Origin: Thermodesulfobacteriota bacterium
GTDB taxonomy: Bacteria; Desulfobacterota; Desulfobacteria; Desulfobacterales; Desulfosudaceae
Assembly (NCBI GenBank): GCA_034189225.1
Contig: JAXHVL010000136.1
Location: forward strand, 6,549-70,548
Direction: 5' to 3'
DNA length: 64,000 bases
Shown: piece by piece, positions 7,044 through 56,865 of the stretch
Layout: the number at the start of each line of letters is the position of its first letter
Numbering within the stretch: position 1 is the stretch's first letter
The notes under the pieces: generated by a model
Databases searched by the model: none
The model's input: only the letters and a program-made list of their open reading frames with translations
What the model was told of the DNA's origin: nothing
Program-made: the position numbers and the translations under genes

Positions 7044-7250
7044 GGCTTCGTAAAAAGCTTCCAACCCCGCTGCGGTGTTTTTGTAGAAAGTAACGTACGC
7101 GAGATCTGGATTTTTACCGCTATTTGTGCTAAACGACCCATTTTTCTTTCATACTTTTCTTTGCTCGCCCAAAGAAGATGGTCTCGTAAAAAGTCAATTT
7201 TGGGACGGCAAAGTAAAAAGCCGCCCCCTCAGGGGTCGGATTTTTACTTT
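7044..7250. repeat. mosaic intergenic repeat block (GGCTTCGTAAAAAGC boundary hairpins plus the F module in inverted orientation)
   Basis: 7083-7178 matches the reverse complement of 34610-34722 (GTAGAAAGTAACGTA.GCGAG...GCTAAACGACCCATTTTTCTTTCATACTTTTCTTTGCTCGCCCAAAGAA). The boundary motifs GGCTTCGTAAAAAGC (7044-7058) and GGCAAAGTAAAAAG (7207-7220) also occur at 50280 and inside the riboswitch inserts. Confidence 0.6.
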
Positions 7251-7592
7251 CGGAAATAACTGATCAACTTTCAGTGTTCTCCCGATGGACACGCCATGAA
7301 CGATGTTATATTCTAGATACTGTTCTTTAGTGCGTGTTCAGGGTTACGAACCAGCACAGCCGTTCTGCAACAATGATTCCAAAGGCTTGCCACCTGTTTT
7401 TGAATTATTTTTCTTCCTGCTCTCTGTTGTTCTGATAAGATGTCCTGCCGCTGCCGCCTCCGGGCCGTCCGTCTAATCAGACACTGCACCTTATACAAAC
7501 CGCTTTGCTGGCATGAGGCATCGGGGGCGATGTCATGCTGTTTAAAAAGGCGCTTTTTCAGCCCGAAAAATGCAGACACATTGCGGAGACAT

Positions 7593-9269: not shown

Positions 9270-9348
9270 TCACCGTAACTGCGCAGAGGATGCAGTGGTC
9301 TTCTTTCTCTGCGTCCTCTGCGCCGCTGCGCCGCTGCGGTCAATAAAC
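9270..9348. repeat. phased-repeat hairpin, GCAGAGR core type
   Basis: TCACCGTAACTGCGCAGAGGATGCAG...TTCTCTGCGTCCTCTGCGCCGCTGCG..GGTCAATAAAC. The same architecture and end motifs (TCACCG...GGTGAATAAAC) occur at 19960-20021. Confidence 0.6.
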
Positions 9349-14179: not shown

Positions 14180-14345
14180 GCTTATGCTGATGGGGGTAAT
14201 CTAGTTTTTAGTTTTTAGTTTTTAACGGGATGAATCGCTTCGCTCTGTCTTTAAAAAAAATGACATATCTACCTCTAACACCTGAAAGCCAATACCTAAC
14301 AGCCAACACCTAAAAGCTAACTGCTAACAGCTACAACCAACCATC
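14180..14345. repeat. low-complexity short-period repeats between tonB and exbD
   Basis: TAGTTTT x3 in tandem (14201-14221), followed by about 8 degenerate CTAAC/CCAAC-containing units (CTCTAACACCTGAAAGCCAATACCTAACAGCCAACACCTAAAAGCTAACTGCTAACAGCTACAACCAACC). Confidence 0.45.
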
Positions 14346-14763: not shown

Positions 14764-14795
14764 TTTAATTAACTCCCTGATACCTTTTGAATGCT

Positions 14796-14890
14796 GGAGG
14801 CCTGAAGGCCTCCGCTACACCGGCTGCGACAATTGCCCCGGATTTTTGTATATGTCGGAGCCGGTGATAGGGGAAGCCTTCAGGCTTCCA
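14796..14890. repeat. intergenic repeat module G (GCTACACCGGCTGCGACAATTG core flanked by small hairpins)
   Basis: GGAGGCCTGAAGGCCTCCGCTACACCGGCTGCGACAATTGCCCCGG...GGAAGCCTTCAGGCTTCC. Related copies lie at 34497-34593 and 55991-56040. Confidence 0.6.
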
Positions 14891-14956
14891 TATCAGAAAA
14901 GAGAACCACGTTCCTTTAAAGACCAAAGGAATCGCAACGCTTATTTCATCTTTTAA

Positions 14957-15046
14957 CCACGGAAAGCACGGAAGGACACGGAAACAGCGGAAGATATTGT
15001 GTTGTTTTCCGTATTTTTCCGTGTTTTTCCGTGTCCTTCCGTGGTT
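14957..15046. repeat. phased-repeat hairpin, CACGGAA core type
   Basis: 5' arm CCACGGAAAGCACGGAAGGACACGGAAACAGCGGAAG. 3' arm TTCCGTATTTTTCCGTGTTTTTCCGTGTCCTTCCGTGG. There are 3-4 core copies per arm at ~9-11 nt spacing. A sister copy lies at 52247-52332. Confidence 0.7.
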
Positions 15047-15086
15047 CCCATCATCAAACCATATTTTGGTGCTTTTCGTGGTACAG

Positions 15087-15205
15087 TAAAAATCCGACCC
15101 CAAAGGGGCCGGCTTTGGTTACCCCTGTAAGGGGATTGTTTACAGGCTTCGTACGTGAACGTTTTAAATTCGAATTTCTAATGTCCAATTTCTGGTCCTT
15201 TACAT
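15087..15205. repeat. intergenic repeat module A (plus a partial D-like tail)
   Basis: AAAATCCGACCCCAAAGGGGCCGGCTTTGGTTACCCCTGTAAGGGGATTGTTTACAGGCTTCGTACGTGAAC. Copies lie at 32791-32870 and 55036-55095. It contains two small hairpins (CCGACCCC/GGGGCCGG and CCCCT/AGGGG). Confidence 0.65.
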
Positions 15206-18112: not shown

Positions 18113-18507
18113 CAAAAAAAAACCCGGATCGATTCAATCGATCCGGGATTCCCTGATTTATCCACAGATGATCCATGGGTACGGTACCGTTCCGGCAACC
18201 GTCCCATCTGTTCAGGCAGGTCTTCTGACTTTCGGATCTGTCTACTGACCGCGCCTTCCCGGTCCTGATGGCTTCGTAAAACGCCCAATAGCTGCGTTGC
18301 GCTGCATCTCTCGTCATGTCACGTACCGCCAAGTACGCTCCATTCCTCGATATGCAGCGACGCCTTGCTCTTGAACTTTTTACTTTGCCATCAGAAGAAC
18401 GCTTCGTAAAACGTCCGTCTACCTTCTGACCAGTGGCATGCTGCGGCCTTCGTCCCCGATTACAGCGGCGGGCCCGTCCCCGAATTTCACGGGGTTCCCT
18501 GTTAGGC
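18113..18507 (-). promoter_or_regulatory. cobalamin (B12) riboswitch with intrinsic-terminator expression platform, long variant carrying an internal repeat insert
   Basis: The minus strand reads AACAGGGAACCCCGTGAAATTCGGGGACGGGCCCGCCGCTGTAATCGGGGACGAA...GCCACTGG...[insert]...GGGAAGGCGCGGTCAGTAG...AGTCAGAAGACCTGCC (B12 box). It ends in CCCGGATCGATTGAATCGATCCGGG followed by a T-run (18113-18147). Confidence 0.9.
18271..18413. repeat. ~130-nt self-complementary repeat element embedded in the riboswitch, bounded by a perfect 13-nt direct repeat
   Basis: GCTTCGTAAAACG occurs at 18271-18283 and again at 18401-18413. The interior matches the free-standing copy at 50280-50400 (CCCAATAGC.GCGTTGCG.TGCATCTCTCGTCATGTCACGTAC...GTACGCTCCATTCCTCGA.ATGCA...GCCTTGCTCTTGA.CTTTTTACTTTGCC). 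Confidence 0.75.
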
Positions 18508-18564
18508 TTTAACGCACCTGAACATTTCACTTTTCTGAATGATCTGATGAAATAATGCAGTCAC

Positions 18565-18657: not shown

Positions 18658-18686
18658 TTGACAGGGAATGTTTGGTTGTATAGTCT
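18658..18686 (+). promoter_or_regulatory. candidate sigma70-type promoter of the plus-strand riboswitch/cbiK operon
   Basis: TTGACA (18658-18663), a 17-nt spacer, then TAGTCT. Alternatively TATAGT with a 15-nt spacer. Confidence 0.4.
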
Positions 18687-18699
18687 ACAGAATCTGTTC

Positions 18700-18954
18700 G
18701 GGTACGCTTATGCGTATAATAGGGAATCTCGTTAAAATCGGGAACGGGCCCGCCGCTGTAATCGGGGACGAACACCGCAGTTTGTCACTACCTCCGGAAG
18801 GATGTGGGAAGGCGCGGTCAGTAGGAAGATCCGGGAGTCAGAAGACCTGCCTGAACAACCCGTGGTTATGTTCACGGCCTTGAAATAACCACAGAAAACT
18901 GGATTAAAAACGGAATCCCCGGTTGGCGATAATACGCTGGCCGGGGATTTTTTT
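18700..18954 (+). promoter_or_regulatory. cobalamin (B12) riboswitch, compact variant, with intrinsic terminator
   Basis: AATAGGGAATCTCGTTAAAATCGGGAACGGGCCCGCCGCTGTAATCGGGGACGAA...GTCACTACCTCCGGAAGGATGTGGGAAGGCGCGGTCAGTAGGAAGATCCGGGAGTCAGAAGACCTGCCTGAACAA. The terminator is AATCCCCGG...CCGGGGATT followed by a T-run (18914-18954). Confidence 0.9.
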
Positions 18955-19959: not shown

Positions 19960-20021
19960 TTCACCGCAGAGAGCGCAGAGAGGCATTTTTCTCTGCGTCC
20001 TCTGCTCTACGGTGAATAAAC
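19960..20021. repeat. phased-repeat hairpin, GCAGAGR core type
   Basis: TTCACCGCAGAGAGCGCAGAGAGGCATTTTTCTCTGCGTCCTCTGCTCTACGGTGAATAAAC. This is the sister of the copy at 9270-9348. Confidence 0.65.
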
Positions 20022-30748: not shown

Positions 30749-30789
30749 AATCGGCAATCTCCTTGCTTTATTACACTCAAAAGGACTTC

Positions 30790-31183
30790 AAAAAAAATCC
30801 CGGATCGATTCAATCGATCCGGGATTCCCTGATTTATCCACAGATGATCCATGGGTACAGTACCGTTCCGGCAACCGTCCCATCTGTTCAGGCAGGTCTT
30901 CTGACTTTCGGATCTGTCTACTGACCGCGCCTTCCCGGTCCTGATGGCTTCGTAAAACGCCCAATAGCTGCGTTGCGCTGCATCTCTCGTCATGTCACGT
31001 ACCGCCAAGTACGCTCCATTCCTCGATATGCAGCGACGCCTTGCTCTTGAACTTTTTACTTTGCCATCAGAAGAACGCTTCGCAAAAAGTCCGTCTACCT
31101 TCTGACCAGTGGCATGCTGCGGCCTTCGTCCCCGATTACAGCGGCGGGTCCGTCCCCGAATTTCACGGGGTTCCCTGTTAGGC
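30790..31183 (-). promoter_or_regulatory. cobalamin (B12) riboswitch, long variant, near-identical copy of 18113-18507
   Basis: It has the same aptamer, insert, B12 box and terminator hairpin as 18113-18507. By eye I count about 5 substitutions over ~390 nt. Homology starts at GCCTAACAGGG and ends at the terminator T-run. Confidence 0.9.
30947..31089. repeat. embedded ~130-nt repeat element (second copy inside a riboswitch)
   Basis: GCTTCGTAAAACG at 30947-30959 and the degenerate copy GCTTCGCAAAAAG at 31077-31089. The interior is identical to 18284-18400. Confidence 0.75.
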
Positions 31184-31212
31184 GCATCCTCGCGCACCCG
31201 AACCAGGTTACG

Positions 31213-31241
31213 AGAATATACAATTAAACCGCTGCTGTCAA
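31213..31241 (-). promoter_or_regulatory. candidate sigma70-type promoter for the cbiC-operon riboswitch
   Basis: On the minus strand, TTGACA (31241-31236), a 17-nt spacer, then TATTCT (31218-31213). Confidence 0.45.
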
Positions 31242-32791: not shown

Positions 32792-33130
32792 AAAACCGCC
32801 CCAAAGAGGTCGGCTTTGGTTACCCTTATAAGGGGATTGTTTATAGGCCTCGTACGTGACCATATAAAGTTCGAAATACGAAGGCACATAGTGCTTGCAC
32901 TCATCCTTCGTGTTCTTCGTGAACTTCGTGGTTCATTTGATTTGATGTTTATTACCACGAAGCGCACGAAGGGCACGAAGACATATGCATCGAATAGATA
33001 TCCCGAAACACGCCGATATCTGCTTTGATCATTGAAACATTTGGTATTCGAATTTGTTTCGGGTTTCGAAATTCGAATTTCATGCTTAAAACCATTACTG
33101 ACCTGGCCCCGAAGGCCAGTCTTTTTCAGT
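32791..33130. repeat. mosaic intergenic repeat block: module A, CACGAAG phased hairpin (32905-32980), module D/E
   Basis: It is colinear with 55036-55280. The order is A (CCGCCCCAAAGAGGTCGGCTTTGGTTACCCTTATAAGGGG), then hairpin CTTCGTGTTCTTCGTGAACTTCGTGGTT...TACCACGAAGCGCACGAAGGGCACGAAG, then TGATCATTGAAACATTTGGTATTCGAATTTGTTTCGGGTTTCGAAATTCGAATTTC, then GACCTGGCCCCGAAGGCCAG. Confidence 0.7.
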
Positions 33131-33209: not shown

Positions 33210-34412
33210 ATGCAGCATCACAGGGAACGATCGGTGATCCACATCAATGTGGCCAATTTCGCGGTGGCCGTGGAAAGACGGCTGGATGCGCGGCTCAGGG
33301 ACCGGCCGGTATTGATCGCCCCGGCCGGGGCCCCGCGAACGCCCGTATACGACATGAGCCAGGAAGCCTTTCAGTCGGGCATACGTAAAGGCATGCCGGT
33401 GGCAAGCGCCATCAAGCGCTGCCGGGCGTGTCAATTGGTCCCCCTTCACCCGGCCCGGTACGAACTGGCAATGAAAACCATTATCAAATATGCCCGAAAA
33501 TACACCCCGGCCATTGAACACGGAGACGGGGACGGCCACCTGTTTCTGGATGTGACCGGGACCAGCCGGCTTTTCGGGCCGCCGCCGGATGTGGCATGGC
33601 GCCTGGAAAAACAGGTCAAAAAAGATCTGGGCATGGCGCCGGTGTGGTCGGTTGCGCCCAACAAGCTGGTTGCCAAGGTGGCCACCCGCCTGGTCAAGCC
33701 AGTGGGCGAGTATATTGTCTGGCCCGGCGAAGAAGCGCCCCTGCTCGAGCCCTTACCCATGCACCTTATTCCCGGCATTGAAAAAACCGATCTCGTGGAA
33801 CTTTCCCAATATCATATTTCCCGGGTGCATCAATTAAGGGGTTGGACCATGGAACAGCTTCAGGTGCCTTTCGGGGCCAGGGCAAAATTTCTGTTCGAGG
33901 TCATTCGGGGCATCGATCCGTCCCCAATAACGCCCGGCAAAAAAAAGATGCCGGCCATTGCCATGGATCACGAATTTTCTGAAGACACAAACAATCGCCA
34001 TGCAATGGAACAGGTTCTTTACGGACTCACTGAAAAGGGGGGAAAACAGCTTCGGGCCCAAAGACGGTTTGCAAAAATCGCGGGGGTTGTGATCGACTAT
34101 TCAGACGGGCGGCGGTGCGCACGGCAGATATCCATCGACCCGGCCACGGCAAATGACCCGGCCCTGTTTGCACCGGCACGCAAAGCGCTCCGGCTCGCAC
34201 TCACCCGGAGGGTCCGCGTAAAGCATATCCGGCTTGTTTTGAGAAAACTGGTTTCCCCCCCGGTTCAGCTGACGCTTTTTGACAACGACCGCCAGGAACA
34301 GCAGACCCGCCTCTGCGACGCCATGGACAGGGTCCGGCTGCGGTTCGGGGACGACGCCGTCTACCCCGGCCGCATGGCCTCCCCGCAATTGCAAGAAATA
34401 TTTTACGCATGA
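33210..34412 (+). CDS. imuB: ImuB-like Y-family DNA polymerase homologue (catalytic acidic residues replaced)
   Basis: 400 aa. The Y-family N-terminal motif reads IHINVANFAVAVE where DinB-type enzymes have IHVDMDxFFAxVE. It reads GDGDGHLFLDVTG where DinB has SIDEAYLDVT. The gene sits upstream of dnaE2. Confidence 0.82.
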   Translation: MQHHRERSVIHINVANFAVAVERRLDARLRDRPVLIAPAGAPRTPVYDMSQEAFQSGIRKGMPVASAIKRCRACQLVPLHPARYELAMKTIIKYARKYTPAIEHGDGDGHLFLDVTGTSRLFGPPPDVAWRLEKQVKKDLGMAPVWSVAPNKLVAKVATRLVKPVGEYIVWPGEEAPLLEPLPMHLIPGIEKTDLVELSQYHISRVHQLRGWTMEQLQVPFGARAKFLFEVIRGIDPSPITPGKKKMPAIAMDHEFSEDTNNRHAMEQVLYGLTEKGGKQLRAQRRFAKIAGVVIDYSDGRRCARQISIDPATANDPALFAPARKALRLALTRRVRVKHIRLVLRKLVSPPVQLTLFDNDRQEQQTRLCDAMDRVRLRFGDDAVYPGRMASPQLQEIFYA

Positions 34413-34429
34413 TGCCATGCCAAAACAGC

Positions 34430-34863
34430 ATCACCGGTTCCCACGCAGGAGAGGCTGTGTCGCAATATGCCATTCCGGCCAATGCAGCGAAGGAACTTCT
34501 GGCGGTCTAAAGACCGCCGCTACACCGGCTGTGACAATTGTCCCATATTTTGGTAAACACCACAGCCTGTGTAGCGGAAGCCTTCAGGCTTCCGCAAAAG
34601 CCGAACATAGATATCTTTTTCATACTTTTCTTTGGGCGAGCAAAGAAAAGTATGAAAGAAAAATGGGTCGTTTAGCACAATAGGGATAAAAAAGCCAATC
34701 CTCGCATACGTTACTTTCTGCTATCTGTTTTGGTCATTGGAGCATTTGATATTCGGATTTGTTTCGAATTTCTAATTTCAAATTTCGTGCTTTGCTCCTT
34801 ACCGGCATAGCCTTTTATCGTTGACCTGGCCCAGAGGACCAGGTTTTATTGACTGAATAAAAT
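34430..34863. repeat. mosaic intergenic repeat block between imuB and dnaE2 (GGTTCCCACGCAGGAG motif, module G, module F palindrome, module D/E)
   Basis: G lies at 34497-34593. F has the 16-bp perfect-stem palindrome TTCATACTTTTCTTTGggcgagCAAAGAAAAGTATGAA (about 34621-34660). D/E lies at 34725-34863 and matches 43676-43805. Confidence 0.7.
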
Positions 34864-34864
34864 T

Positions 34865-37800
34865 ATGATCCCCCTCACCATTCGATCCCATTATTCCCTC
34901 ATGTGGGGCACCGCCGCCGTCAGGGAGATATGCAATGCGGCCAGGCGCCTGGGATACCGCCGGCTGGCCCTGACCGATACGGACAATCTGTACGGGCTTC
35001 GGCATTTCATTCAGGCCTGCAAAGAAAATGATATCACGCCCGTGATCGGGGCGGAACTGACCGATCCCCGCACCCCGGACCGGGCAGTGCTTCTTGTGAA
35101 AAACAGCGAGGGGTATAAGAACCTTTGCCGGGTGATCACGGCGCGGCATCTTGACCCGGACTTTCACCTGGGCGACAGTGTTGCCGGCCACGGGGACGGC
35201 CTGGCCGTGCTGGCCGCAACCCCCCGCCACCTGCCGCAATGGCATGAAGCTGGCATCGATGTCCATGCGGCCATCCCCCGGAAACCGGGACCGCAATCGC
35301 GCCGGCTTTGCCGGGCCGCCGGAGAACTGAACATTCCCCTTGTGGCCACACCCGGCAGTTTTTTTCTGGCGCCCGGGGATATCGAAACGCACCGACTGCT
35401 TCGGGCCATTGACCTGAACACCACCATAGACCGGCTCGGGCCGGCGGAGACCGCCCCAGCAGATGCCTGGCTGGCATCCGCCCGGACCTATCAGGACCGT
35501 TTTCACCTGTGCCCGGAGGCGGTTGCCAATACCCACCGGCTTTCTGAAACCCTGGCATTTACCGGCCCGGATTTCGGCCTTGTCATGCCGCCATGGCAGG
35601 GGGAAGGCCGTCTGAATGCCGAAGCCGCGCTGCGGAAAGCGGCTTACCGGGGTGCCCGCCAACGATACGGCCACGACCTTCCCCCGGCCGTGGCAGACCG
35701 GCTTGACCATGAACTGAATATCATCAATGCCATGGGGTTTGCCGCCTATTTTCTCGTGGTGCAGGACATCGTGCGCCTGAGCCCCCGGATCTGCGGCAGG
35801 GGATCGGGGGCCGCCTCCCTTGTGGCCTATTGCCTTTATATCACCAATGTGTGCCCGGTAAAGCACAACCTCTATTTTGAACGCTTTTTAAATCCCGGCA
35901 GAAAAGACCCGCCGGACATTGACGTGGATTTTGCATGGGACGAGCGGGACGATGTCCTGGCGGCCGTATTTGAAAGATACCCCGGCCATTGCGCCATGAT
36001 GTGCAATCATGTACTGGTTCAGCCCCGGCTCGCCGTGCGCGAAGTTGCCAGGGTTTACGGGCTCACGGAAGCGGAAATCAGCAGGGTCACCCGAAAGATG
36101 CCCTGGTTCTGGCGAAAGGAAACGGCCGGCCCTGATATCCTTCGTGAACTGTCAAAGCGGCCCGAATCCAGGGACCTTGACCTGCCCGCGCCCTGGCCGG
36201 ACATCATGGCCGCGGCCCGGAACATATGCGGTGCGCCCCGGTATCTCTCGGTTCACCCGGGAGGCATCGTGATCACCCCCAACCCTGTTCATGAATATGT
36301 GCCGGTTGAACGGGCGGCCAAGGGGGTGCGGATTATTCAGTGGGAAAAGGACCAGGCGGAAGATGCAGGACTTGTAAAAATAGATCTTCTCGGCAACCGG
36401 AGCCTGGGCGTTATCCGGGACGCCGTCTGCAATCTCAAGGCAAACGGCCACCACCTGGATGAAGCCGCATGGGCGCCCGAAGAAGACCGGCGGACACAGA
36501 CGGCCCTGGCCCGGGGCAACACCATGGGGTGCTTTTATATTGAAAGCCCTGCCACACGGCTGCTGCAGCAGAAATCCGGAACCGGCGATTTTGCACACCT
36601 TGTCATTCACAGCAGCATTATCCGGCCGGCGGCAAACGACTATATCCAGGAATACCTGAAACGGCTGCACGGGGCGCCATGGGACCCCATACACCCGCTG
36701 CTCGCCGGCGTTCTTGACGAAACCTTCGGCATCATGGTGTATCAGGAAGATGTATCCCGGGCTGCCGTGGCCGTTGCGGGATTTTCCCACGCCGATGCCG
36801 ACGGCCTTCGGAAGGTCATGTCCAAAAAGGACAAAGCACATATATTGAACGATTTTCATGAACGGTTTGTGCAGGGCGCTCGAAAAAAGCACATCCCTGA
36901 AGCAAAAATCAGCGAGATATGGGAAATGATGATGAGCTTCAGCGGATACTCCTTTTGCAAGCCCCACAGCGCGTCCTATGCGAAGGTATCCTTTCAGGCG
37001 GCCTGGCTAAAGGTCCATTATCCCGCAGAGTTCATGGCGGCGGTGATCAGCAACCAGGGCGGGTTTTACAGCACCTTTGCCTATGTGTCCGAAGCCATGC
37101 GCGCCGGGATCTCAGTCCTGCCGCCGGATGTAAACAGGAGCGGGATCAAGTGGCAGGGCAAGGCGCAATATATCCGGGTGGGGTTTTTATCCATCAGGGG
37201 ATTGTCCTGCCGGACAATGGAAAAAACCATTGCCCAACGGAAAAAGAAAGAATTTACCGGCGTAACAGATTACCTGGAACGCGTAAGACCGGGAACCTCC
37301 GAAACCCGAGCCCTTATCCAGTGCGGCGCATTTGACGCCTTACACCCAGGTGTGTCAAGAACCATGATCATGTGGGAATTGGCCCACCACGATAAAGCAC
37401 GGCAGCCGGATGCTTCCGAGCCGCTCCTGTTTGCCATGCCCCCTTCTCCGCTAGTGCCGCCGCCGGAGATGAGCGAAGACCCTCTCAAAAGGCGCAGGCA
37501 GGAATTCCAGGTGCTGGGGTTCTTGTGTGACAGTCACCCCATGACATTATACAGGGAGACCCTGGAAACAAAACAGGTGGTAAAGGCAAGCCATATGCGC
37601 CGGCATGCGGGTCAACACATCTGCATGGCCGGCTGGCTCATCACCGGAAAGGTGGTCAGAACAAAGCACGGCGACCCCATGGAGTTTCTCACGTTTGAAG
37701 ACGAAACCGACAGCTTTGAAACCACCTTCTTCCCAGGCGTCTATACCCGGTTCTGCCATATGATCGACAAGGGCCGGCCCTACCTGCTTCAGGGAACAGT

Positions 37801-37912
37801 TGACGAAAACTGGGGCGCGGTCACCCTGACCGTCCAGAACGTGGCGGCATTGCCCCGCCTGAACTCACTGCGCCAGGATCATCGTCGGTCCCCGGATGCC
37901 CTCTGTTATTGA
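34865..37912 (+). CDS. dnaE2: error-prone DNA polymerase III alpha-subunit paralogue DnaE2
   Basis: 1015 aa. N-terminal PHP domain (RSHYSLMWGTAAVREI), polymerase core (GRGSGAASLVAYCLYITNV, PDIDVDF) and an OB-fold C-terminus. Its size and its position after imuB are typical of DnaE2. Confidence 0.93.
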   Translation: MIPLTIRSHYSLMWGTAAVREICNAARRLGYRRLALTDTDNLYGLRHFIQACKENDITPVIGAELTDPRTPDRAVLLVKNSEGYKNLCRVITARHLDPDFHLGDSVAGHGDGLAVLAATPRHLPQWHEAGIDVHAAIPRKPGPQSRRLCRAAGELNIPLVATPGSFFLAPGDIETHRLLRAIDLNTTIDRLGPAETAPADAWLASARTYQDRFHLCPEAVANTHRLSETLAFTGPDFGLVMPPWQGEGRLNAEAALRKAAYRGARQRYGHDLPPAVADRLDHELNIINAMGFAAYFLVVQDIVRLSPRICGRGSGAASLVAYCLYITNVCPVKHNLYFERFLNPGRKDPPDIDVDFAWDERDDVLAAVFERYPGHCAMMCNHVLVQPRLAVREVARVYGLTEAEISRVTRKMPWFWRKETAGPDILRELSKRPESRDLDLPAPWPDIMAAARNICGAPRYLSVHPGGIVITPNPVHEYVPVERAAKGVRIIQWEKDQAEDAGLVKIDLLGNRSLGVIRDAVCNLKANGHHLDEAAWAPEEDRRTQTALARGNTMGCFYIESPATRLLQQKSGTGDFAHLVIHSSIIRPAANDYIQEYLKRLHGAPWDPIHPLLAGVLDETFGIMVYQEDVSRAAVAVAGFSHADADGLRKVMSKKDKAHILNDFHERFVQGARKKHIPEAKISEIWEMMMSFSGYSFCKPHSASYAKVSFQAAWLKVHYPAEFMAAVISNQGGFYSTFAYVSEAMRAGISVLPPDVNRSGIKWQGKAQYIRVGFLSIRGLSCRTMEKTIAQRKKKEFTGVTDYLERVRPGTSETRALIQCGAFDALHPGVSRTMIMWELAHHDKARQPDASEPLLFAMPPSPLVPPPEMSEDPLKRRRQEFQVLGFLCDSHPMTLYRETLETKQVVKASHMRRHAGQHICMAGWLITGKVVRTKHGDPMEFLTFEDETDSFETTFFPGVYTRFCHMIDKGRPYLLQGTVDENWGAVTLTVQNVAALPRLNSLRQDHRRSPDALCY

Positions 37913-41891: not shown

Positions 41892-41960
41892 GGAAATTAG
41901 AAATTGGAAATTAGAAATCCGTCATGCCTCACTAGTGTCTAATCTCCAATTTCCAATTTC
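41892..41960. repeat. phased-repeat hairpin, GAAATTR core type
   Basis: GGAAATTAGAAATTGGAAATTAGAAATCcgtcatgcctcactagtgTCTAATCTCCAATTTCCAATTTC, with a 7-nt period. Confidence 0.65.
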
Positions 41961-43565: not shown

Positions 43566-43675
43566 ACATGCACCCCATGAAACATAAACTCATTCAAGTA
43601 CCAGCTTCCCTGCCGTAAGTCAAGTGTTTTTATCGAATTTTTCAATTTTCAAAACAACTGATTGCAAGGGTGTGT

Positions 43676-43805
43676 GTTTTGATCATTGGAGCATTTGATA
43701 TTCGGATTTGTTTCAAATTTCGAATTTCGCGCTTTGCTCCATACCGGCATAGCCTTTTATCGCTGACCTGGCCCAGCAGACCATGTTTTATTGAATGAAT
43801 AAATT
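43676..43805. repeat. intergenic repeat module D/E
   Basis: TTTTGATCATTGGAGCATTTGATATTCGGATTTGTTTCAAATTTCGAATTTCGCGCTTTGCTCCATACCGGCATAGCCTTTTATCGCTGACCTGGCCCAGCAGACCATGTTTTATTGAATGAATAAA. It is near-identical to 34725-34863. Confidence 0.7.
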
Positions 43806-43942: not shown

Positions 43943-44020
43943 TTCTTCATGTGCTTCATGTCCTTCATGGTAATTGCCACCTGATGGATTAAACCATGAA
44001 GAACATGAAACGTATGAAGG
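43943..44020. repeat. phased-repeat hairpin, CATGAAG core type
   Basis: TTCTTCATGTGCTTCATGTCCTTCATGGTAATTGCCACCTGATGGATTAAACCATGAAGAACATGAAACGTATGAAGG. Confidence 0.65.
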
Positions 44021-44129: not shown

Positions 44130-45974
44130 TTACCGTGCCGGTACGGATTCCGATACCGCCACCTCGTATTCCACGAGGTCCGGCGGCAGCTCGGGGATCA
44201 CAATCATGAACGGCACGTTGGCGCCGGGCTGAACCCCCACATTCTGCTGGTCCATGCCGGCGCGATTGGCCAGGCGGGCCCGGATACTGCCGATATCATT
44301 TTCCGACAGTTCTTCAATTGTCAAAATGTTCCCACAATAGGCCGAAGTGGTGCGTGCCAGATTATGCCCCCGCGAGTACAGGTTTGCCGTCACCTCGATG
44401 AAACTCTTGGGCTCGGATGATTTATTGGTTGCGGTGCCGCTGATAATAAAAAGCTTGCCGGAAATATCGTTCTTTACAAAATCGCTCTGAATACTGCTTT
44501 GGACCACGCTGACATCGGAACCTGAAACAGCCGGCGGGCCCTGTTCGGAACCTGCTATCAATTCTCCGATATAGGGTATTTTTTCAAGGGAAGGCAGGTT
44601 CACCCCCATCCTTCCGGCCAGTATATACCCGCCCACCGCGAGGGCCGCCAGTACAATCAGAACAATAACAATCGAGAGAAAAACCTTTCCAATCTTCTTC
44701 TTTGCCTTCTTTTTCTTATCCTTGCCGGCCTTCGCCGCTTTCTTCTTTTTGGCCTTCTTGTCTTTACCCGCGGCGGTTTCCGCTTCTTCACCGGCTTCAG
44801 CGGCCTCGTCTTCTTTCGAATCGAAGTCCACCTCGATGTCCTCGGCGTCTTCATCCTCGTCCCCGGCCAGCATCTTTTCTATATCCGAAAAATCTTCATC
44901 CTCGGCACCGCCGAGCTCCAGGTCCTCATCCGGGGTTTCATCACTTTCATCATCGGAAAGCTCCAGTTCAAGGTCCTCTGACTCTTCATCATCATCTTCT
45001 TCCGGCTCCAGCAGTTCCATCTCGATGGTCTGCTCCAGATCGGAAAGATCGATTTCCTGCTGCTCCACGCCGTCCTCATCCCCGGCATCGCCAAAATCAA
45101 GCCCATCGGCCGACTCTTCCACGGTATCGGTAAAAGATTCGTCATCGTCGGACTCCAGCAGGCTTTCAACCTCAGAAAAATCAAGCTCATCGTCTTCCTC
45201 ATCATCAAGGCTCAGCTCGAGTTCGTTACTGCCGCCGTCACTTTCCGCCGCTTCATCATCATCCAGGGAGAGCTCCAGATCATCGTCGTCTTCATCCAGG
45301 CTCAGCTCAAAATCATCCTCATCTGTGGCGGGGCCTTCCTGCCCATCGTCGTCGCCATCATCCAGGGATAGTTCCAGATCATCAACACCCGCGTCATCAT
45401 CTTCGTCCAAGGATAATTCCAAATCCTCACCGCCCGGCGCTTCGTCTTCGCCCTCTTCGTCTTCATCCAGGGATAACGCCATATCCTCGTCATCGAAGCT
45501 CAACTCCGGTTCCTCGCCTTCAACGCCGCCGGATTCGTCTTGGTCCGACTCGATTTCTATATCCAGATCATCAGCGCCTTCGGCCGCTTCCCGGTTTTCA
45601 TCCTCGTCAGTTTCATCCTCATCAATAGACAAATCAAGTTCATCCTCGCTCAAATCAAGCGACAGATCATCATTCAGTTCATCTTCGAAATCATCTTCTG
45701 AATCTGCTCCTGAATCTGGCCCGCCTTCCGGCTCACTTTCATCTTCTGCGTCTTGCACTCCAAAGTCCGGTGTTTCCCCGGCTGCCTTGTCTTCTTCATG
45801 TTCACCACCCCCGGTATCCGGCTCAGGCTCAGGTTCGGCCGCCGGTTCCTCAACGGGGGGAAACGCCAGAAAAATATGCTTGCACTTGGAGCACCTGACC
45901 TTGGAACCGCTGGGCTTTAGAAGGGTTTCGTCGAGTCTAAAGCTGATACCGCATTTTTCGCAGGTAATGATCAT
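44130..45974 (-). CDS. MJ0042-type zinc-ribbon protein with a ~370-aa hyper-acidic repeat region, Lys-rich patch, TM helix and C-terminal DUF3426-like domain
   Basis: 614 aa. N-terminus MIITCEKCGISFRLDETLLKPSGSKVRCSKCKHIF (CxxC...CxxC). A D/E-rich region carries at least six (L/F)ELSLD(D/E) units. KDKKAKKKKAAKAGKDKKKKAKKKIGK precedes the TM helix VFLSIVIVLIVLAALAVGGYILA. The C-terminal beta-rich domain is typical of DUF3426. Confidence 0.85.
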   Translation of the reverse strand: MIITCEKCGISFRLDETLLKPSGSKVRCSKCKHIFLAFPPVEEPAAEPEPEPDTGGGEHEEDKAAGETPDFGVQDAEDESEPEGGPDSGADSEDDFEDELNDDLSLDLSEDELDLSIDEDETDEDENREAAEGADDLDIEIESDQDESGGVEGEEPELSFDDEDMALSLDEDEEGEDEAPGGEDLELSLDEDDDAGVDDLELSLDDGDDDGQEGPATDEDDFELSLDEDDDDLELSLDDDEAAESDGGSNELELSLDDEEDDELDFSEVESLLESDDDESFTDTVEESADGLDFGDAGDEDGVEQQEIDLSDLEQTIEMELLEPEEDDDEESEDLELELSDDESDETPDEDLELGGAEDEDFSDIEKMLAGDEDEDAEDIEVDFDSKEDEAAEAGEEAETAAGKDKKAKKKKAAKAGKDKKKKAKKKIGKVFLSIVIVLIVLAALAVGGYILAGRMGVNLPSLEKIPYIGELIAGSEQGPPAVSGSDVSVVQSSIQSDFVKNDISGKLFIISGTATNKSSEPKSFIEVTANLYSRGHNLARTTSAYCGNILTIEELSENDIGSIRARLANRAGMDQQNVGVQPGANVPFMIVIPELPPDLVEYEVAVSESVPAR

Positions 45975-47254: not shown

Positions 47255-47310
47255 AAATCGAAGTCGAGGTCGAAATCGCTCGCCGGTTCCCACGCAGGAG
47301 CGTGGGAACC
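47255..47310. repeat. short phased repeat (GTCGARR units) plus GGTTCCCACGCAGGAG hairpin
   Basis: AATCGAAGTCGAGGTCGAAATCG is followed by the hairpin GGTTCCCACGCAGGAGCGTGGGAACC. The GGTTCCCACGCAGGAG motif recurs at 34433-34450. Confidence 0.5.
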
Positions 47311-47366
47311 ATAGGGTAAAGTAAATCACCAAACGAATAAGGGGCGGTTTTTTCGGGAGAAAGAAC

Positions 47367-49131: not shown

Positions 49132-50277
49132 ATGGACATATTACACTACACCGATGCCCATGAGGAATTCCGGCACCGCCTGCGCACCTTCTGCGAAAAC
49201 GAAATCACACCGTTTGTTGATGAGTGGGAAAAAGATCATATTGTTCCAAAGCATGCCTGGAAGCGAATGGGGGAAGAAGGCTTTCTCTGCACTGCCGTTT
49301 CAGAAACATACGGCGGCCAGGGAAAGGATTTCCTCTATTCCGTGATCGTGGCCGAAGAGCTGGCCAGAACAAACCACACCGGCCTGGCTGCCCCTCTTCA
49401 CAGCGACATCGTGGTGCCGTACATCGAGTCCTACGGCTCTGAAGCCATTAAAAAGCGGTTTCTCCCGGGCTGCGTTTCCGGCGATACCATTACAGCGGTG
49501 GCAATGACCGAGCCGGATGCGGGCAGCGACCTGGCCGCCATGACCACCACCGCGGTGGAAGACGGCGACGAAGTGGAGATCAACGGCTCAAAAACCTTTA
49601 TCACAAACGGCATCAATGCGGACCTTGTGGTAGTGGCGGCGGTTGACCCATCGGTGGACAACCCCCACCAGGCCGTCTCCCTCTATCTTGTCAAAGATGG
49701 TACGCCGGGGTTTGAACGGGGCCGGCGGCTGGAAAAAATGGGATTTCACAGCCAGGACACGGCCGAGCTGTTTTTCAATAAATGCCGAATTCCCGTGGAA
49801 AACCGGCTGGGAGAAAAAAACATGGGCTTTATCATGCTCATGGAAAAACTTCAGCAGGAACGTCTGATCTGTGCGGTCATGGCCCAGTTCGCCGTGGAAC
49901 TGATCGTGGAAAAGGTCACCGAATATTTAAAGACGGCAAAGGACGCGGTGGGCAAGCCGCTGTCCAAGTATCAGGCCACAAACTTCGCCCTGGTGGAAAT
50001 GGCGACCGAGGCCAAAATCGGCCGGACCTTCATGGAAAAGCTCGTTGCCGAACATATGGAAGGCAGGGATGTGGTGATGGAGACCTGCATGGCCAAGTAC
50101 TGGCACACCGACCTTACCCAGACCGTTGCCAACCGAGCCCTGGACCTGATCGGCGAAGAGGCGGCGGCCGAACGGAGCCTTATCCTTCGGGGCTGGCGGG
50201 ACCTGCGGGTGCTGCCGATATTTGCCGGCACCAACGAGATCATGAAGATGGTGGTGGGCCGCATGCTGCAACTGTGA
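49132..50277 (+). CDS. acyl-CoA dehydrogenase family protein
   Basis: The start is MDILHYTDAHEEFR (AAGGAG upstream of ATG 49132). ACAD motifs AVAMTEPDAGSDL and RDLRVLPIFAGTNEIM are present. Confidence 0.9.
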   Translation: MDILHYTDAHEEFRHRLRTFCENEITPFVDEWEKDHIVPKHAWKRMGEEGFLCTAVSETYGGQGKDFLYSVIVAEELARTNHTGLAAPLHSDIVVPYIESYGSEAIKKRFLPGCVSGDTITAVAMTEPDAGSDLAAMTTTAVEDGDEVEINGSKTFITNGINADLVVVAAVDPSVDNPHQAVSLYLVKDGTPGFERGRRLEKMGFHSQDTAELFFNKCRIPVENRLGEKNMGFIMLMEKLQQERLICAVMAQFAVELIVEKVTEYLKTAKDAVGKPLSKYQATNFALVEMATEAKIGRTFMEKLVAEHMEGRDVVMETCMAKYWHTDLTQTVANRALDLIGEEAAAERSLILRGWRDLRVLPIFAGTNEIMKMVVGRMLQL

Positions 50278-50279
50278 GG

Positions 50280-50400
50280 GCTTCGTAAAAAGCCCAATAG
50301 CGGCGTTGCGGTGCATCTCTCGTCATGTCACGTACACCCCTGTACGCTCCATTCCTCGAGATGCACCGGCGCCTTGCTCTTGACCTTTTTACTTTGCCCT
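50280..50400. repeat. free-standing copy of the ~130-nt element found inside the two long riboswitches
   Basis: GGGCTTCGTAAAAAGCCCAATAGCGGCGTTGCGGTGCATCTCTCGTCATGTCACGTACACCCCTGTACGCTCCATTCCTCGAGATGCACCGGCGCCTTGCTCTTGACCTTTTTACTTTGCC. Confidence 0.75.
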
Positions 50401-50444
50401 CAATAATTTTTTTGAGGCTTTTAGCTTCTCAATGGAGATTGATA

Positions 50445-52228: not shown

Positions 52229-52246
52229 GAAGAATGCAAATATACA

Positions 52247-52332
52247 ACCACGGAGCACACGGAACGACACGGAAAAGCAGAACATTTTTCAATTTCCGTG
52301 CCTTTCCGTGCCTTTCCGTGTTTTCCGTGGTT
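52247..52332. repeat. phased-repeat hairpin, CACGGAA core type, between sdhC and sdhA
   Basis: ACCACGGAGCACACGGAACGACACGGAAAAGCagaacatttttcaaTTTCCGTGCCTTTCCGTGCCTTTCCGTGTTTTCCGTGGTT. Confidence 0.7.
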
Positions 52333-55035: not shown

Positions 55036-55280
55036 ACATCCGACCCCAGAGGGGCCGGCTTTGGTTACCCCTGTAAGGGGGTTGTTTATAGTCTGAACTC
55101 ACCCTTCGTGAACTTCGTGGTTCAATTGTCTGGCGTTGATTACCACGAAGAGCACGAAGGTCACGAAGATAAATGCATCGCATTGATGCCCCGGAACACT
55201 CCGGTATCTGTTTTGATCATTGGAACATTTGGTATTCGGATTTGTTTCGAGTTTCGAATTTCAAATTTAGTGTTTTTCGC
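55036..55280. repeat. mosaic intergenic repeat block: module A, CACGAAG phased hairpin (55102-55168), module D
   Basis: It has the same module order as 32791-33130. The hairpin is CCTTCGTGAACTTCGTGGTTcaattgtctggcgttgatTACCACGAAGAGCACGAAGGTCACGAAG. Module D is TTTTGATCATTGGAACATTTGGTATTCGGATTTGTTTCGAGTTTCGAATTTC. Confidence 0.7.
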
Positions 55281-55345
55281 ATTGTCTTGACAAAGCCCCT
55301 ACCACTCCTGGCCCGGCTCTAAGATTTTCAAATTGGAAGAACAAA

Positions 55346-55990: not shown

Positions 55991-56093
55991 GGGAAAGACC
56001 TTCGCTACACCGGCTGCTGACAATATCACAGCCCCGGTAAATGCAACGGCCATGGGTTGCCCCACGGGCAACCTGACGGTCAGCCCCTGTCAC
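55991..56093. repeat. module G-like repeat ending in the left copy of a 38-bp direct repeat
   Basis: CTTCGCTACACCGGCTGCTGACAAT..., then GGGTTGCCCCACGGGCAACCTGACGGTCAGCCCCTGTCAC (56054-56093). A second copy lies at 56739-56776. Confidence 0.6.
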
Positions 56094-56738: not shown

Positions 56739-56865
56739 GGGTTACCCACGGGCAACCTGACGGTCAGCCCTGCCACTATTTAAATATCTATATTTTCAAG
56801 ATATCGTTTTTATTCATACTTTTCTTTGGGCGAGCAAAGAAAAGTATGAAAGAAAAAAGCGTGTT
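56739..56865. repeat. right copy of the 38-bp direct repeat plus the module F palindrome
   Basis: GGGTTACCCACGGGCAACCTGACGGTCAGCCCTGCCAC (56739-56776). The palindrome is TTCATACTTTTCTTTGggcgagCAAAGAAAAGTATGAA (about 56812-56850). Confidence 0.6.

Follow-up and report, generated by a model that had tools for sequence, protein, structure and literature searches.

How can a hairpin whose arms are themselves tandem arrays of a single heptamer be kept so uniform, and what does it do between the genes of bacterial operons? The question is raised by a 64,000-nt stretch of DNA from a member of the Desulfosudaceae (Thermodesulfobacteriota; contig JAXHVL010000136.1), in which inverted arrays of units of the form CAYGRAR recur from one intergenic spacer to another. 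Homologues of its SdhC point to an uncultured member of the Desulfobacterales. Throughout, "the window" refers to this whole stretch, and positions are counted from its first letter. A preliminary description, made from the letters alone, had grouped nine loci as one family of intergenic hairpins and had proposed several speculative roles for them, among them mRNA 3'-end stabilisers and iteron-like protein-binding arrays. The best reading of the present analysis takes the CAYGRAR loci for copies of a foldback repeat, dispersed and non-autonomous, which resembles the repetitive extragenic palindromes (REPs) and their inverted doublets (REPINs) in behaviour but not in sequence. The copies have sharp ends, occupy unrelated intergenic sites and are gained or absent at orthologous sites; spacers and loop decay over time, while the six heptamers and the head of the array remain intact and mutually identical. 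The finding is a real, well-delimited member of an already described class of repeats.

Architecture of the heptamer arrays

All nine loci were read, and inverted arrays of short, phased units around a loop are present at eight of them. The ninth (47255-47280) is a direct array adjoining an unrelated simple hairpin at 47285-47311, and hence falls outside the hairpin family. On an approximate gene map with Pfam assignments all copies in the window are intergenic, and their placement is as first described, 19-114 nt past stop codons and between sdhC and sdhA, exbB and exbD, cbiK and fecCD, and ddl and purD. The loci are as follows.

14955-15046, no strand assigned: CACGGAA foldback element whose arrays converge, heads outermost; it occupies the exbB-exbD spacer, past a terminator-like module
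14955-14995: left arm of this element, AACC-CACGGAA x3 and a degenerate fourth unit
about 14996-15005: its loop
15006-15046: its right arm, TTCCGTR x4, terminating in CGTGGTT
52246-52332, no strand assigned: CACGGAR foldback element with convergent arrays, three units left and four right, a paralogue of 14955-15046, between sdhC (stop 52228) and sdhA (start 52367)
32905-32981, no strand assigned: CACGAAG element with divergent arrays of 3+3 units, heads CGTGGT/ACCACG adjoining the loop, inside a mosaic repeat block of about 300 nt downstream of a DUF72 gene and upstream of imuB (of an imuB-dnaE2 pair)
55102-55169, no strand assigned: CACGAAG element with divergent arrays of 2+3 units, a paralogue of 32905-32981 with the left arm one 9-nt unit shorter, between sdhB and a metallophosphoesterase gene
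43943-44020, no strand assigned: CATGAAG element with divergent arrays, heads CATGGT/ACCATG adjoining the loop, downstream of the gene at 44130-45974 (minus strand)
41892-41960, no strand assigned: GAAATTR heptamer hairpin of period 7 without spacers, four units left and two to three right, between ddl and purD-purE
9270-9348, no strand assigned: GCAGAGR/CTCTGCG foldback element with unequal arms and ends TTTCACCG...CGGTCAATAAACAG, beginning 19 nt past the stop codon of a DJ-1/PfpI gene
19960-20021, no strand assigned: GCAGAGR foldback element of 2+2 units, period 9, ends TTCACCG...CGGTGAATAAACAG, a paralogue of 9270-9348, between cbiK and fecCD
47255-47280, plus strand: direct period-7 array TCGAAG TCGAGG TCGAAA without inverted partner

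Two topologies occur among the CAYGRAR loci, a distinction that had been overlooked. The arrays at 14955 and 52246 are convergent, with the ACC-extended head units outermost, whereas those at 32905, 55102 and 43943 are divergent and their heads flank the loop. Since the hairpin is identical on both strands, the topologies are different arrangements of one directional module and not orientations of the element. This module is an array with a head, TTnAC, followed by three CACGRAR heptamers at a period of 9-10 nt; two inverted arrays, usually tail-to-tail and less often head-to-head, make one element, which is a discrete unit of about 90 nt. The extension of one terminal unit to ACCACG/CGTGGT had been correctly noticed, and holds also in 160 arrays from other genomes. 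The single family of nine must be given up: the CAYGRAR type, with its period of 9-10, three units and ACC head, is a specific one found across phyla, the GAAATTR array is spacer-less with a period of 7, and 47255 forms no hairpin.

Inverted-array loci were defined by a 6-mer occurring at least three times within 45 nt together with at least two reverse-complement copies within 120 nt. The window contains seven, against a mean of 0.05 and a maximum of one in 100 dinucleotide shuffles, and the concern that shuffled DNA might yield such arrays at comparable frequency is thereby answered. The CACGRAR x3 pattern matches eight times in the window and in none of 100 shuffles. Predicted RNA folding of the loci ranges from -31 to -58 kcal/mol (z-scores -4.2 to -10.8; 0 of 200 shuffles as stable), the 14955-15046 element standing at -58.2 kcal/mol (z -9.8).

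Several familiar identities were tried and rejected, in part confirming exclusions already made. Units of 7 nt with spacers of 2-4 nt are not CRISPR arrays, which have repeats of 23-50 nt and unique spacers of similar length, and single arms such as ACCACGGAAAGCACGGAAGGACACGGAAA have neither the internal palindrome nor the GTAG of canonical REPs. The elements are non-coding, as had been proposed; a 9-nt period would be compatible with coding, but the 10-nt periods and the intergenic position rule it out. They are not intrinsic terminators: no U-tract directly follows the full stems, after which the sequences are GGTTCCCATC and GGTTTAAAAC, and a terminator scan marks only the inner sub-stem 14987-15012 of the 14955-15046 element. 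Contiguous heptamers of the short tandemly repeated repetitive (STRR) type are excluded by a period of 9 (71% of the arrays) or 10 (23%), and in the window spacer-less 7-nt units are confined to the GAAATTR array at 41892-41918, the D4 module listed below and 14202-14224. DnaA boxes, parS, MraZ repeats, Chi, sigma-54 and extracytoplasmic function (ECF) promoters, CsrA GGA motifs and lambda arm-type sites, as known motifs, misfit in sequence or lie in the wrong location. At the loci Rfam gave no family at gathering threshold, and at a permissive threshold only generic miRNA-like hairpins far below it. A BLAST search of a plasmid collection returned no match, perhaps owing to low-complexity masking, and literature queries with sequence strings returned only primer matches.

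Conservation of units and turnover of copies

A scan of species-representative genomes for CACGRAR x3 gave at least 120 stretches, 80 of them listed, where the chance expectation for single matches in 596 Gb was estimated at about 150. Among the matches listed are Methylococcales, Burkholderiales, Caulobacterales, Desulfobacterota (including Geobacteraceae and Syntrophobacter), Acidobacteriota, Verrucomicrobiota, Planctomycetota, Chloroflexota, Heliobacteria, Gemmatimonadota, Bacteroidota, Nitrospirota and others. The fetched loci include at least 51 inverted array pairs besides the four in the window, and a hairpin was recovered from a metagenome-assembled genome of the Geobacteraceae (L063). 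At least 12 such hairpins occur in viral contigs of IMG/VR. One phage contig (L231; IMG/VR 3300044477_000284) carries five solo CACGRAA x3 arrays on one strand, at 664, 2024, 5113, 5676 and 11083, each preceded by a conserved AACCGNAACCGATTT motif; a Pfam search of this contig found only a gpA-type terminase and a D12 methylase, and no candidate binding protein.

Loops and spacers are homologous only between copies within one genome and never between genomes; only unit, head and design are therefore common to different phyla. On the same ground recent horizontal transfer of whole elements was rejected. Inverted-array loci reach 109 per Mb in the window and 114 per Mb in the CACGRAR-seeded loci (46 of these being other unit types), and 7 per Mb in 553 kb of sequence from SdhA relatives, chosen independently of their repeats. 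The number of elements is thus greatly expanded in this genome, and their density is lineage-specific.

The arrays from other genomes reveal where the constraint lies. Across the 160 arrays, C stands immediately before the first unit (position -1) in 88-90%, A precedes it (position -2) in 57-71%, and the stretch ahead of them is T-rich. Partner arms, on which the search placed no constraint, have two, three or four units in 25, 54 and 8 cases respectively, and of 55 pairs 48 are convergent and 7 divergent, the loop measuring 7-115 nt. Complementarity in 73 arm pairs from other genomes is 92-99% at unit positions against 55% in spacers. Spacers are Watson-Crick complementary at 50%, compared to 31% with shuffled partners, and of equal length on the two arms in 66 of 77. 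All three units of an array agree at R5 in 95% and at R7 in 84% (expected 36% and 33%), although its two spacers are identical in only 18%. No sense-strand G-U advantage, a potential sign of RNA-level selection, was found in 33 co-directional contexts, where sense and antisense strands fold better in 17 and 16 cases respectively and differ by a mean of -0.25 kcal/mol, a result that speaks against selection acting on a single transcript strand. If pairing alone were selected, the six helices would not be held identical, or the same across phyla, and slippage alone would duplicate spacers along with units; hence, a factor that reads the heptamers is the simplest reading. Of the roles proposed initially, an iteron-like, putative protein-binding array fits the contrast between units and spacers best.

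Paralogues within the window display the same pattern. The two CACGGAA copies (14955-15046 and 52246-52332) align from AACC to GGTT, including the degenerate fourth unit and the loop, while identity in their flanks (9/34) is that of random sequence. Unit and head columns are identical at 53 of 55 positions against 18 of 37 in spacers and loop (Fisher 1e-7). No target-site duplication surrounds these two copies, the flanks being CATCTTTT/AACC...GGTT/CCCATC and AATATAC/AACC...GGTT/TAAAAC; the apparent TTnAC/GTnAA flanks are reverse complements, and so part of the stem and not a duplication. The two GCAGAGR copies have common ends (TTTCACC...GGTGAATAAACAG) and unequal unit number, and the two CACGAAG copies, within a duplicated mosaic of about 300 nt, differ by exactly one 9-nt unit.

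Strains were compared in four intergenic spacers, using contigs that encode identical proteins. All Logan strain contigs carry the elements. In the sdhC-sdhA element one strain is without a single TTTCCGTGCC unit (a 10-nt indel), and a substitution between strains lies a few nucleotides upstream of that element; contig L334 has an additional 14-nt unit, TTGGCTGTTAGGTA, in the direct array at 14277-14333, contig L336 has two single-nucleotide polymorphisms in the 9270 left arm, and the 19960 element is invariant. The expected variation in unit number is therefore seen both between strains (10 nt) and between paralogues (9 nt).

Orthologous spacers, a comparison that the preliminary description had suggested, differ in the presence of elements at both the sdhC-sdhA and sdhB-downstream sites. 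The sdhC-sdhA spacer of 138 nt measures 22 nt in a relative with 84% identical SdhC and 9 nt in another (70%), both without the element. A third relative (SdhC 86%) has a different foldback of CACAGAC units, which shares the ACCAC start, and a CATGRAR array in this spacer. The foldback in this spacer (L125, 1380-1600) reads ACCACAGAC aca CACGGAC caa CACAGAC ... GTCTGTG tgg GTCTGTGG, with the CATGRAR array separate and one-armed; the CACAGAC foldback is the outcome either of an independent insertion or of all units having changed in concert. Downstream of sdhB, the 84% relative has neither the element nor its modules in the orthologous spacer, but it keeps the GAAATTR left array at the orthologous site of that array, with a degenerate right arm. 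Elements are gained, lost and remodelled over species divergence, and unit number changes between strains: empty or different orthologous spacers and unit indels place turnover on the timescale of species and unit change on that of strains.

The surrounding intergenic mosaic

In this genome, intergenic DNA is put together as a mosaic from repeat modules, which include two that we call D6 and D4 and several more.

15085-15181, no strand assigned: D6, a terminator-like hairpin CCGACCCCAAAGGGGCCGG and a second small hairpin
32799-32882, 55044-55127 and, inverted, 7217-7256: further copies of D6, which accompanies three array hairpins
55200-55283, plus strand: D4, consisting of TTTGATCATTGGARCATTTGRTATTCGGATTTG and then three to four spacer-less heptamers (GTTTCGA/ATTTCRA)
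33012-33095, 34717-34800 and 43666-43749: further copies of D4 in the same intergenic mosaic

In the terminator scan the D6 site at 15112-15094 (minus strand) was rated a canonical terminator. The 14955 copy lies beyond this canonical terminator hairpin, and the 32905 and 55102 elements each stand past a further copy of the terminator-like D6; these three elements may therefore be outside the transcript of the upstream gene.

Copies of D4 are upstream of imuB, dnaE2 and the metallophosphoesterase gene, with one more beside tRNA-Met. A palindrome module with a perfect stem, TTCATACTTTTCTTTGGGCGAGCAAAGAAAAGTATGAA, is found at three intergenic sites, 7145-7197 (minus strand), 34616-34668 and 56810-56862. 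Another module, GGCCTGAAGGCCTCCGCTACACCGGCTGCGACAATTG, comprising a hairpin and a conserved tail, occurs at 14794-14866, 34499-34571 and 55995-56017, placed upstream of exbD, after imuB and after the metallophosphoesterase gene. Genes for an imuB-like Y-family polymerase and a dnaE2-like error-prone polymerase occupy 33210-37912, with a 453-nt spacer made mostly of repeat modules. In the exbD-tonB spacer, direct arrays at 14277-14333 and 14202-14224 have 7- and 14-nt units (CTAACAG-like; TAGTTTT x3), and the CTAACTG unit there is similar to the TAACTGA repeats found in Beggiatoaceae and cyanobacteria. Contigs of this species assembled from short reads terminate at or near repeat modules, for example 23 nt past sdhB and 61 nt upstream of exbD (L121/L122, L333/L335), and the mosaic repeats thus appear to fragment assemblies.

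Repetition extends beyond the spacers. A zinc-ribbon/DUF3426 protein gene (44130-45974, minus strand) has about nine in-frame, degenerate repeats of 33-48 nt encoding an acidic region. Three cobalamin riboswitches are present, at 18198-18536 (minus), 18683-18868 (plus) and 30874-31216 (minus), two of them in a duplicated 300-nt segment (18113-18412 and 30789-31088; 99% identity, 12.7 kb apart), of which a 128-nt part is repeated at 50275-50402 with 90% identity.

Candidate readings and comparison with known systems

We tentatively favour, as plausible if not quite probable, a REP/REPIN-like foldback repeat in which the heptamers are recognition sites of a putative mobilising or binding factor and the transcript hairpin is a side effect. 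The heptamers would be read by a sequence-specific factor, either the enzyme responsible for copying the element or a host protein of nucleoid or regulatory type, whose specificity would be conserved across phyla, and this would account for the restriction of cross-phyla sharing to units and head. Where transcribed, the element may fold into an interrupted stem of about 30 bp after the stop codon, which would probably buffer 3' decay or processing as REP hairpins do, as a consequence and not as the constraint that shapes the element. The architecture, the conservation specific to units, gain and loss, slippage, location and the spread across phyla are shown; the factor, the mobility and any effect on mRNA we infer. 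The more specific proposal, that a putative cross-phyla binding protein or mobilising enzyme recognises the triple-CACGRAR array and its ACC head as its module, is possible but doubtful; if true, it would reveal a second partnership like that of REPs with RAYT, or else a novel code of nucleoid proteins, at work in numerous bacterial phyla as well as some phages, and could offer a handle on the accumulation of heptamer arrays in particular genomes.

A number of observations weigh against this account. Target-site duplications are lacking and no clean filled-versus-empty pair was found at high identity, the relatives from the metagenome scan having SdhA identity of 82% or less, so that transposition is only inferred. 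Identity of about 50% outside the units makes the copies within this genome old, with no recent burst visible, and several unit flavours in one genome (CACGGAA, CACGAAG, CATGAAG) would need a tolerant factor or several factors. All-against-all comparison of open reading frames (ORFs) at 120 loci produced no recurrent transposase, RAYT or other partner; the clusters that do recur (GGDEF/EAL, ABC ATPase, dehydrogenase, TPR, enoyl-CoA hydratase, AMP-binding) are common families. Head-to-head, solo and directly oriented arrays misfit a simple element with terminal inverted repeats. Finally, the partial complementarity and equal length of the spacers would also fit selection on the hairpin.

That last point leads to the reading of the element as RNA, in which the long interrupted hairpin is itself the function: it would block 3' exonucleases, be processed by an RNase III-type enzyme or terminate transcription weakly, and would set the relative expression of neighbouring cistrons. 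Such an RNA-level effect on neighbouring cistrons has been shown for REPs in Escherichia coli. The hairpins are indeed very stable on both strands, they follow stop codons by 19-52 nt, inside operons, and leave the downstream ribosome-binding site free, spacers usually form internal loops of equal length, and divergent regions are depleted (none of the 21 Geobacter class 2 pairs described below, and about 10% in our noisier sample). Yet selection for pairing only explains neither six identical heptamers nor a CACG common to unrelated phyla, spacers are unpaired, no U-tract follows the full stem, solo arrays exist and three copies lie beyond the terminator or D6 modules. We consider this reading unlikely, and the initial suggestion of an mRNA 3'-end stabiliser, taken as the main constraint, is not favoured: both strands fold equally, spacers are barely complementary where units are almost fully so, and arrays also occur solo or in direct orientation.

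If the duplex rather than the transcript is read, the arrays could be binding sites for a nucleoid-associated or global regulatory protein, with one subunit per heptamer at about one helical turn and the inverted pair either incidental or serving bidirectional action. Analogues exist in the heptamer direct repeats of SARP/OmpR-type regulators, in MraZ sites and in iterons. Conserved units amid free spacers, the preference for three units and a 9-10 nt period, the directional head, folding without strand bias, a unit conserved across phyla without loop homology, two copies within verified divergent promoter regions, and solo and direct-orientation arrays, including the five on one strand of the terminase-encoding phage contig, are all in its favour. 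It is nevertheless somewhat unlikely, for most copies lie past stop codons or inside operons and not at promoters, loops down to 7-25 nt exclude DNA looping between the arms, the arms match in unit number and spacer length beyond what independent sites would require, and one genome holds several flavours. Furthermore, no candidate protein was found among the ORFs of the 120 loci or in the phage contig, and the integration host factor (IHF) consensus is absent from the units. The reading is essentially the IHF/HU proposal of Aklujkar et al. (2009).

The arrays might also be a neutral by-product of mutation, in which short inverted repeats would grow, in genomes prone to such events, when replication slips on units whose length exceeds what mismatch repair handles and when templates switch between the arms of a quasi-palindrome, with no recognising factor. 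Unit indels separate strains and paralogues; the few strain differences in or near the four spacers are the 52247 unit indel, a nearby substitution, two 9270 polymorphisms and the 14-nt indel; arms often have unequal unit numbers, genomes with one type hold many other heptamer arrays, and heptamer simple-sequence repeats are over-represented in some bacteria (PMC4692102; PMC4679880). However, mutation of this kind cannot account for the CACGRAR unit, ACC head and three-unit preference in unrelated phyla, nor for the conservation of unit columns over spacer and loop columns in the paralogues, and slippage would carry the spacer along with the unit, whereas 82% of arrays have differing spacers. 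We regard it as quite improbable.

Dispersed intergenic repeats affect operon expression, genome rearrangement and the targeting of insertion sequences (ISs), and the agents behind them are, outside REP/RAYT, mostly obscure. Here, six identical heptamers kept amid decay, the three-unit preference and a unit and head common to distant phyla are a clear signature of a sequence-reading partner. The putative partner should therefore be findable by pull-down or phylogenetic profiling, and would bring a mechanism open to testing to the long-standing question of heptamer repeats (STRR, TAACTGA). In annotation, the elements appear to break short-read assemblies and may pass for small ORFs or terminators.

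Among known systems, foldback (FB) transposons and miniature inverted-repeat transposable elements (MITEs) likewise have inverted arms of short tandem subrepeats around a variable or empty loop, and are non-coding and dispersed. FB elements, however, are eukaryotic, measure hundreds of bp to kb and make target duplications, and MITEs have a cognate IS with the same ends, whereas neither duplication nor cognate IS was found for CAYGRAR elements (no target duplication at the two CACGGAA paralogues, and no autonomous IS with matching ends in the 0.85 Mb around 120 copies). The STRR of cyanobacteria and the TAACTGA repeats of Beggiatoaceae, Cyanobacteria and Bacteroidetes are intergenic 7-nt units in 2-6 copies, patchy across phyla and with a suspected binding protein (MacGregor 2015, PMC4679880). 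They are contiguous direct repeats, often just upstream of start codons, and in the BOGUAY genome only one inverted set is reported among 170 (PMC4679880). In the window this spacer-less kind is represented by the GAAATTR hairpin, the D4 module and the arrays at 14202-14333; CAYGRAR elements differ in their 2-4 nt spacers, fixed three units and paired, inverted arrays.

The likeness to the REP, bacterial interspersed mosaic element (BIME) and REPIN sequences of Enterobacteria and Pseudomonas, whose partner is RAYT (TnpA-REP), is one of behaviour. These are short, non-coding and extragenic, with hundreds of copies; they lie past stop codons and inside operons but rarely between divergent genes, and their inverted doublets form long hairpins, a bias and an arrangement that CAYGRAR elements show too. 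Both form mosaics with other motifs and terminators, undergo lineage-specific expansion and make no target duplication, and IS110 elements insert at REPs as ISGme8 of the IS110 family does at a fixed distance from the class 1 arrays of Geobacter metallireducens described below. Each REP, however, is a small palindrome with a conserved 5' GTAG, whereas CAYGRAR arms are non-palindromic and have three phased heptamers, and REP sequences are species-specific whereas the CACGRAR unit is conserved across phyla.

The closest precedent is found in Geobacter metallireducens, for which the relevant passages of Aklujkar et al. (2009, PMC2700814) describe three classes of multicopy sites. Class 2 consists of 21 pairs of three repeats in tandem, with TCTCCGTS[Y] as their consensus, on opposite strands at variable distance, while classes 1 and 3 have 8-nt x4 and 7-nt x5 units. 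The sites are intergenic and in every case adjoin the 3' end of one gene or more; the contexts of the class 2 pairs, according to Table S4, are tandem for 16, convergent for 5 and divergent for none, and operon-internal sites include pdhA-pdhB and hdrB-hdrA, with proB-proA for class 3. IS110-family ISGme8 and ISGme9 lie at a fixed distance from related class 1 arrays (PMC2700814). In these passages the authors speculated, without experiments, on "putative global regulator (IHF/HU) binding sites", and the account is of duplex protein-binding sites, with no mention there of an ACC head, two topologies, hairpin potential or spread across phyla; this breadth appears unreported in the literature searched. 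G. sulfurreducens is described as having none of the classes (PMC2700814), and the contrast between the two species could serve in finding the partner. The comparison, made by published consensus and description, rests on TCTCCGTS[Y] being the reverse complement of CACGGAGA. Three tandem units are found in both, of 8-9 nt in class 2 and at a period of 9-10 nt here, YTYCGTG with its 2-3 nt spacer fitting the consensus for the CACGGAG flavour of many fetched loci, and both form opposite-strand pairs at variable distance in intergenic DNA, as in the 55 pairs analysed here. The flavours in the window are instead CACGGAA, CACGAAG and CATGAAG (TTCCGTG, CTTCGTG). Judged by consensus, the CACGRAR elements match the class 2 sites described before in G. 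metallireducens, class 2 being the CACGGAG flavour of this family.

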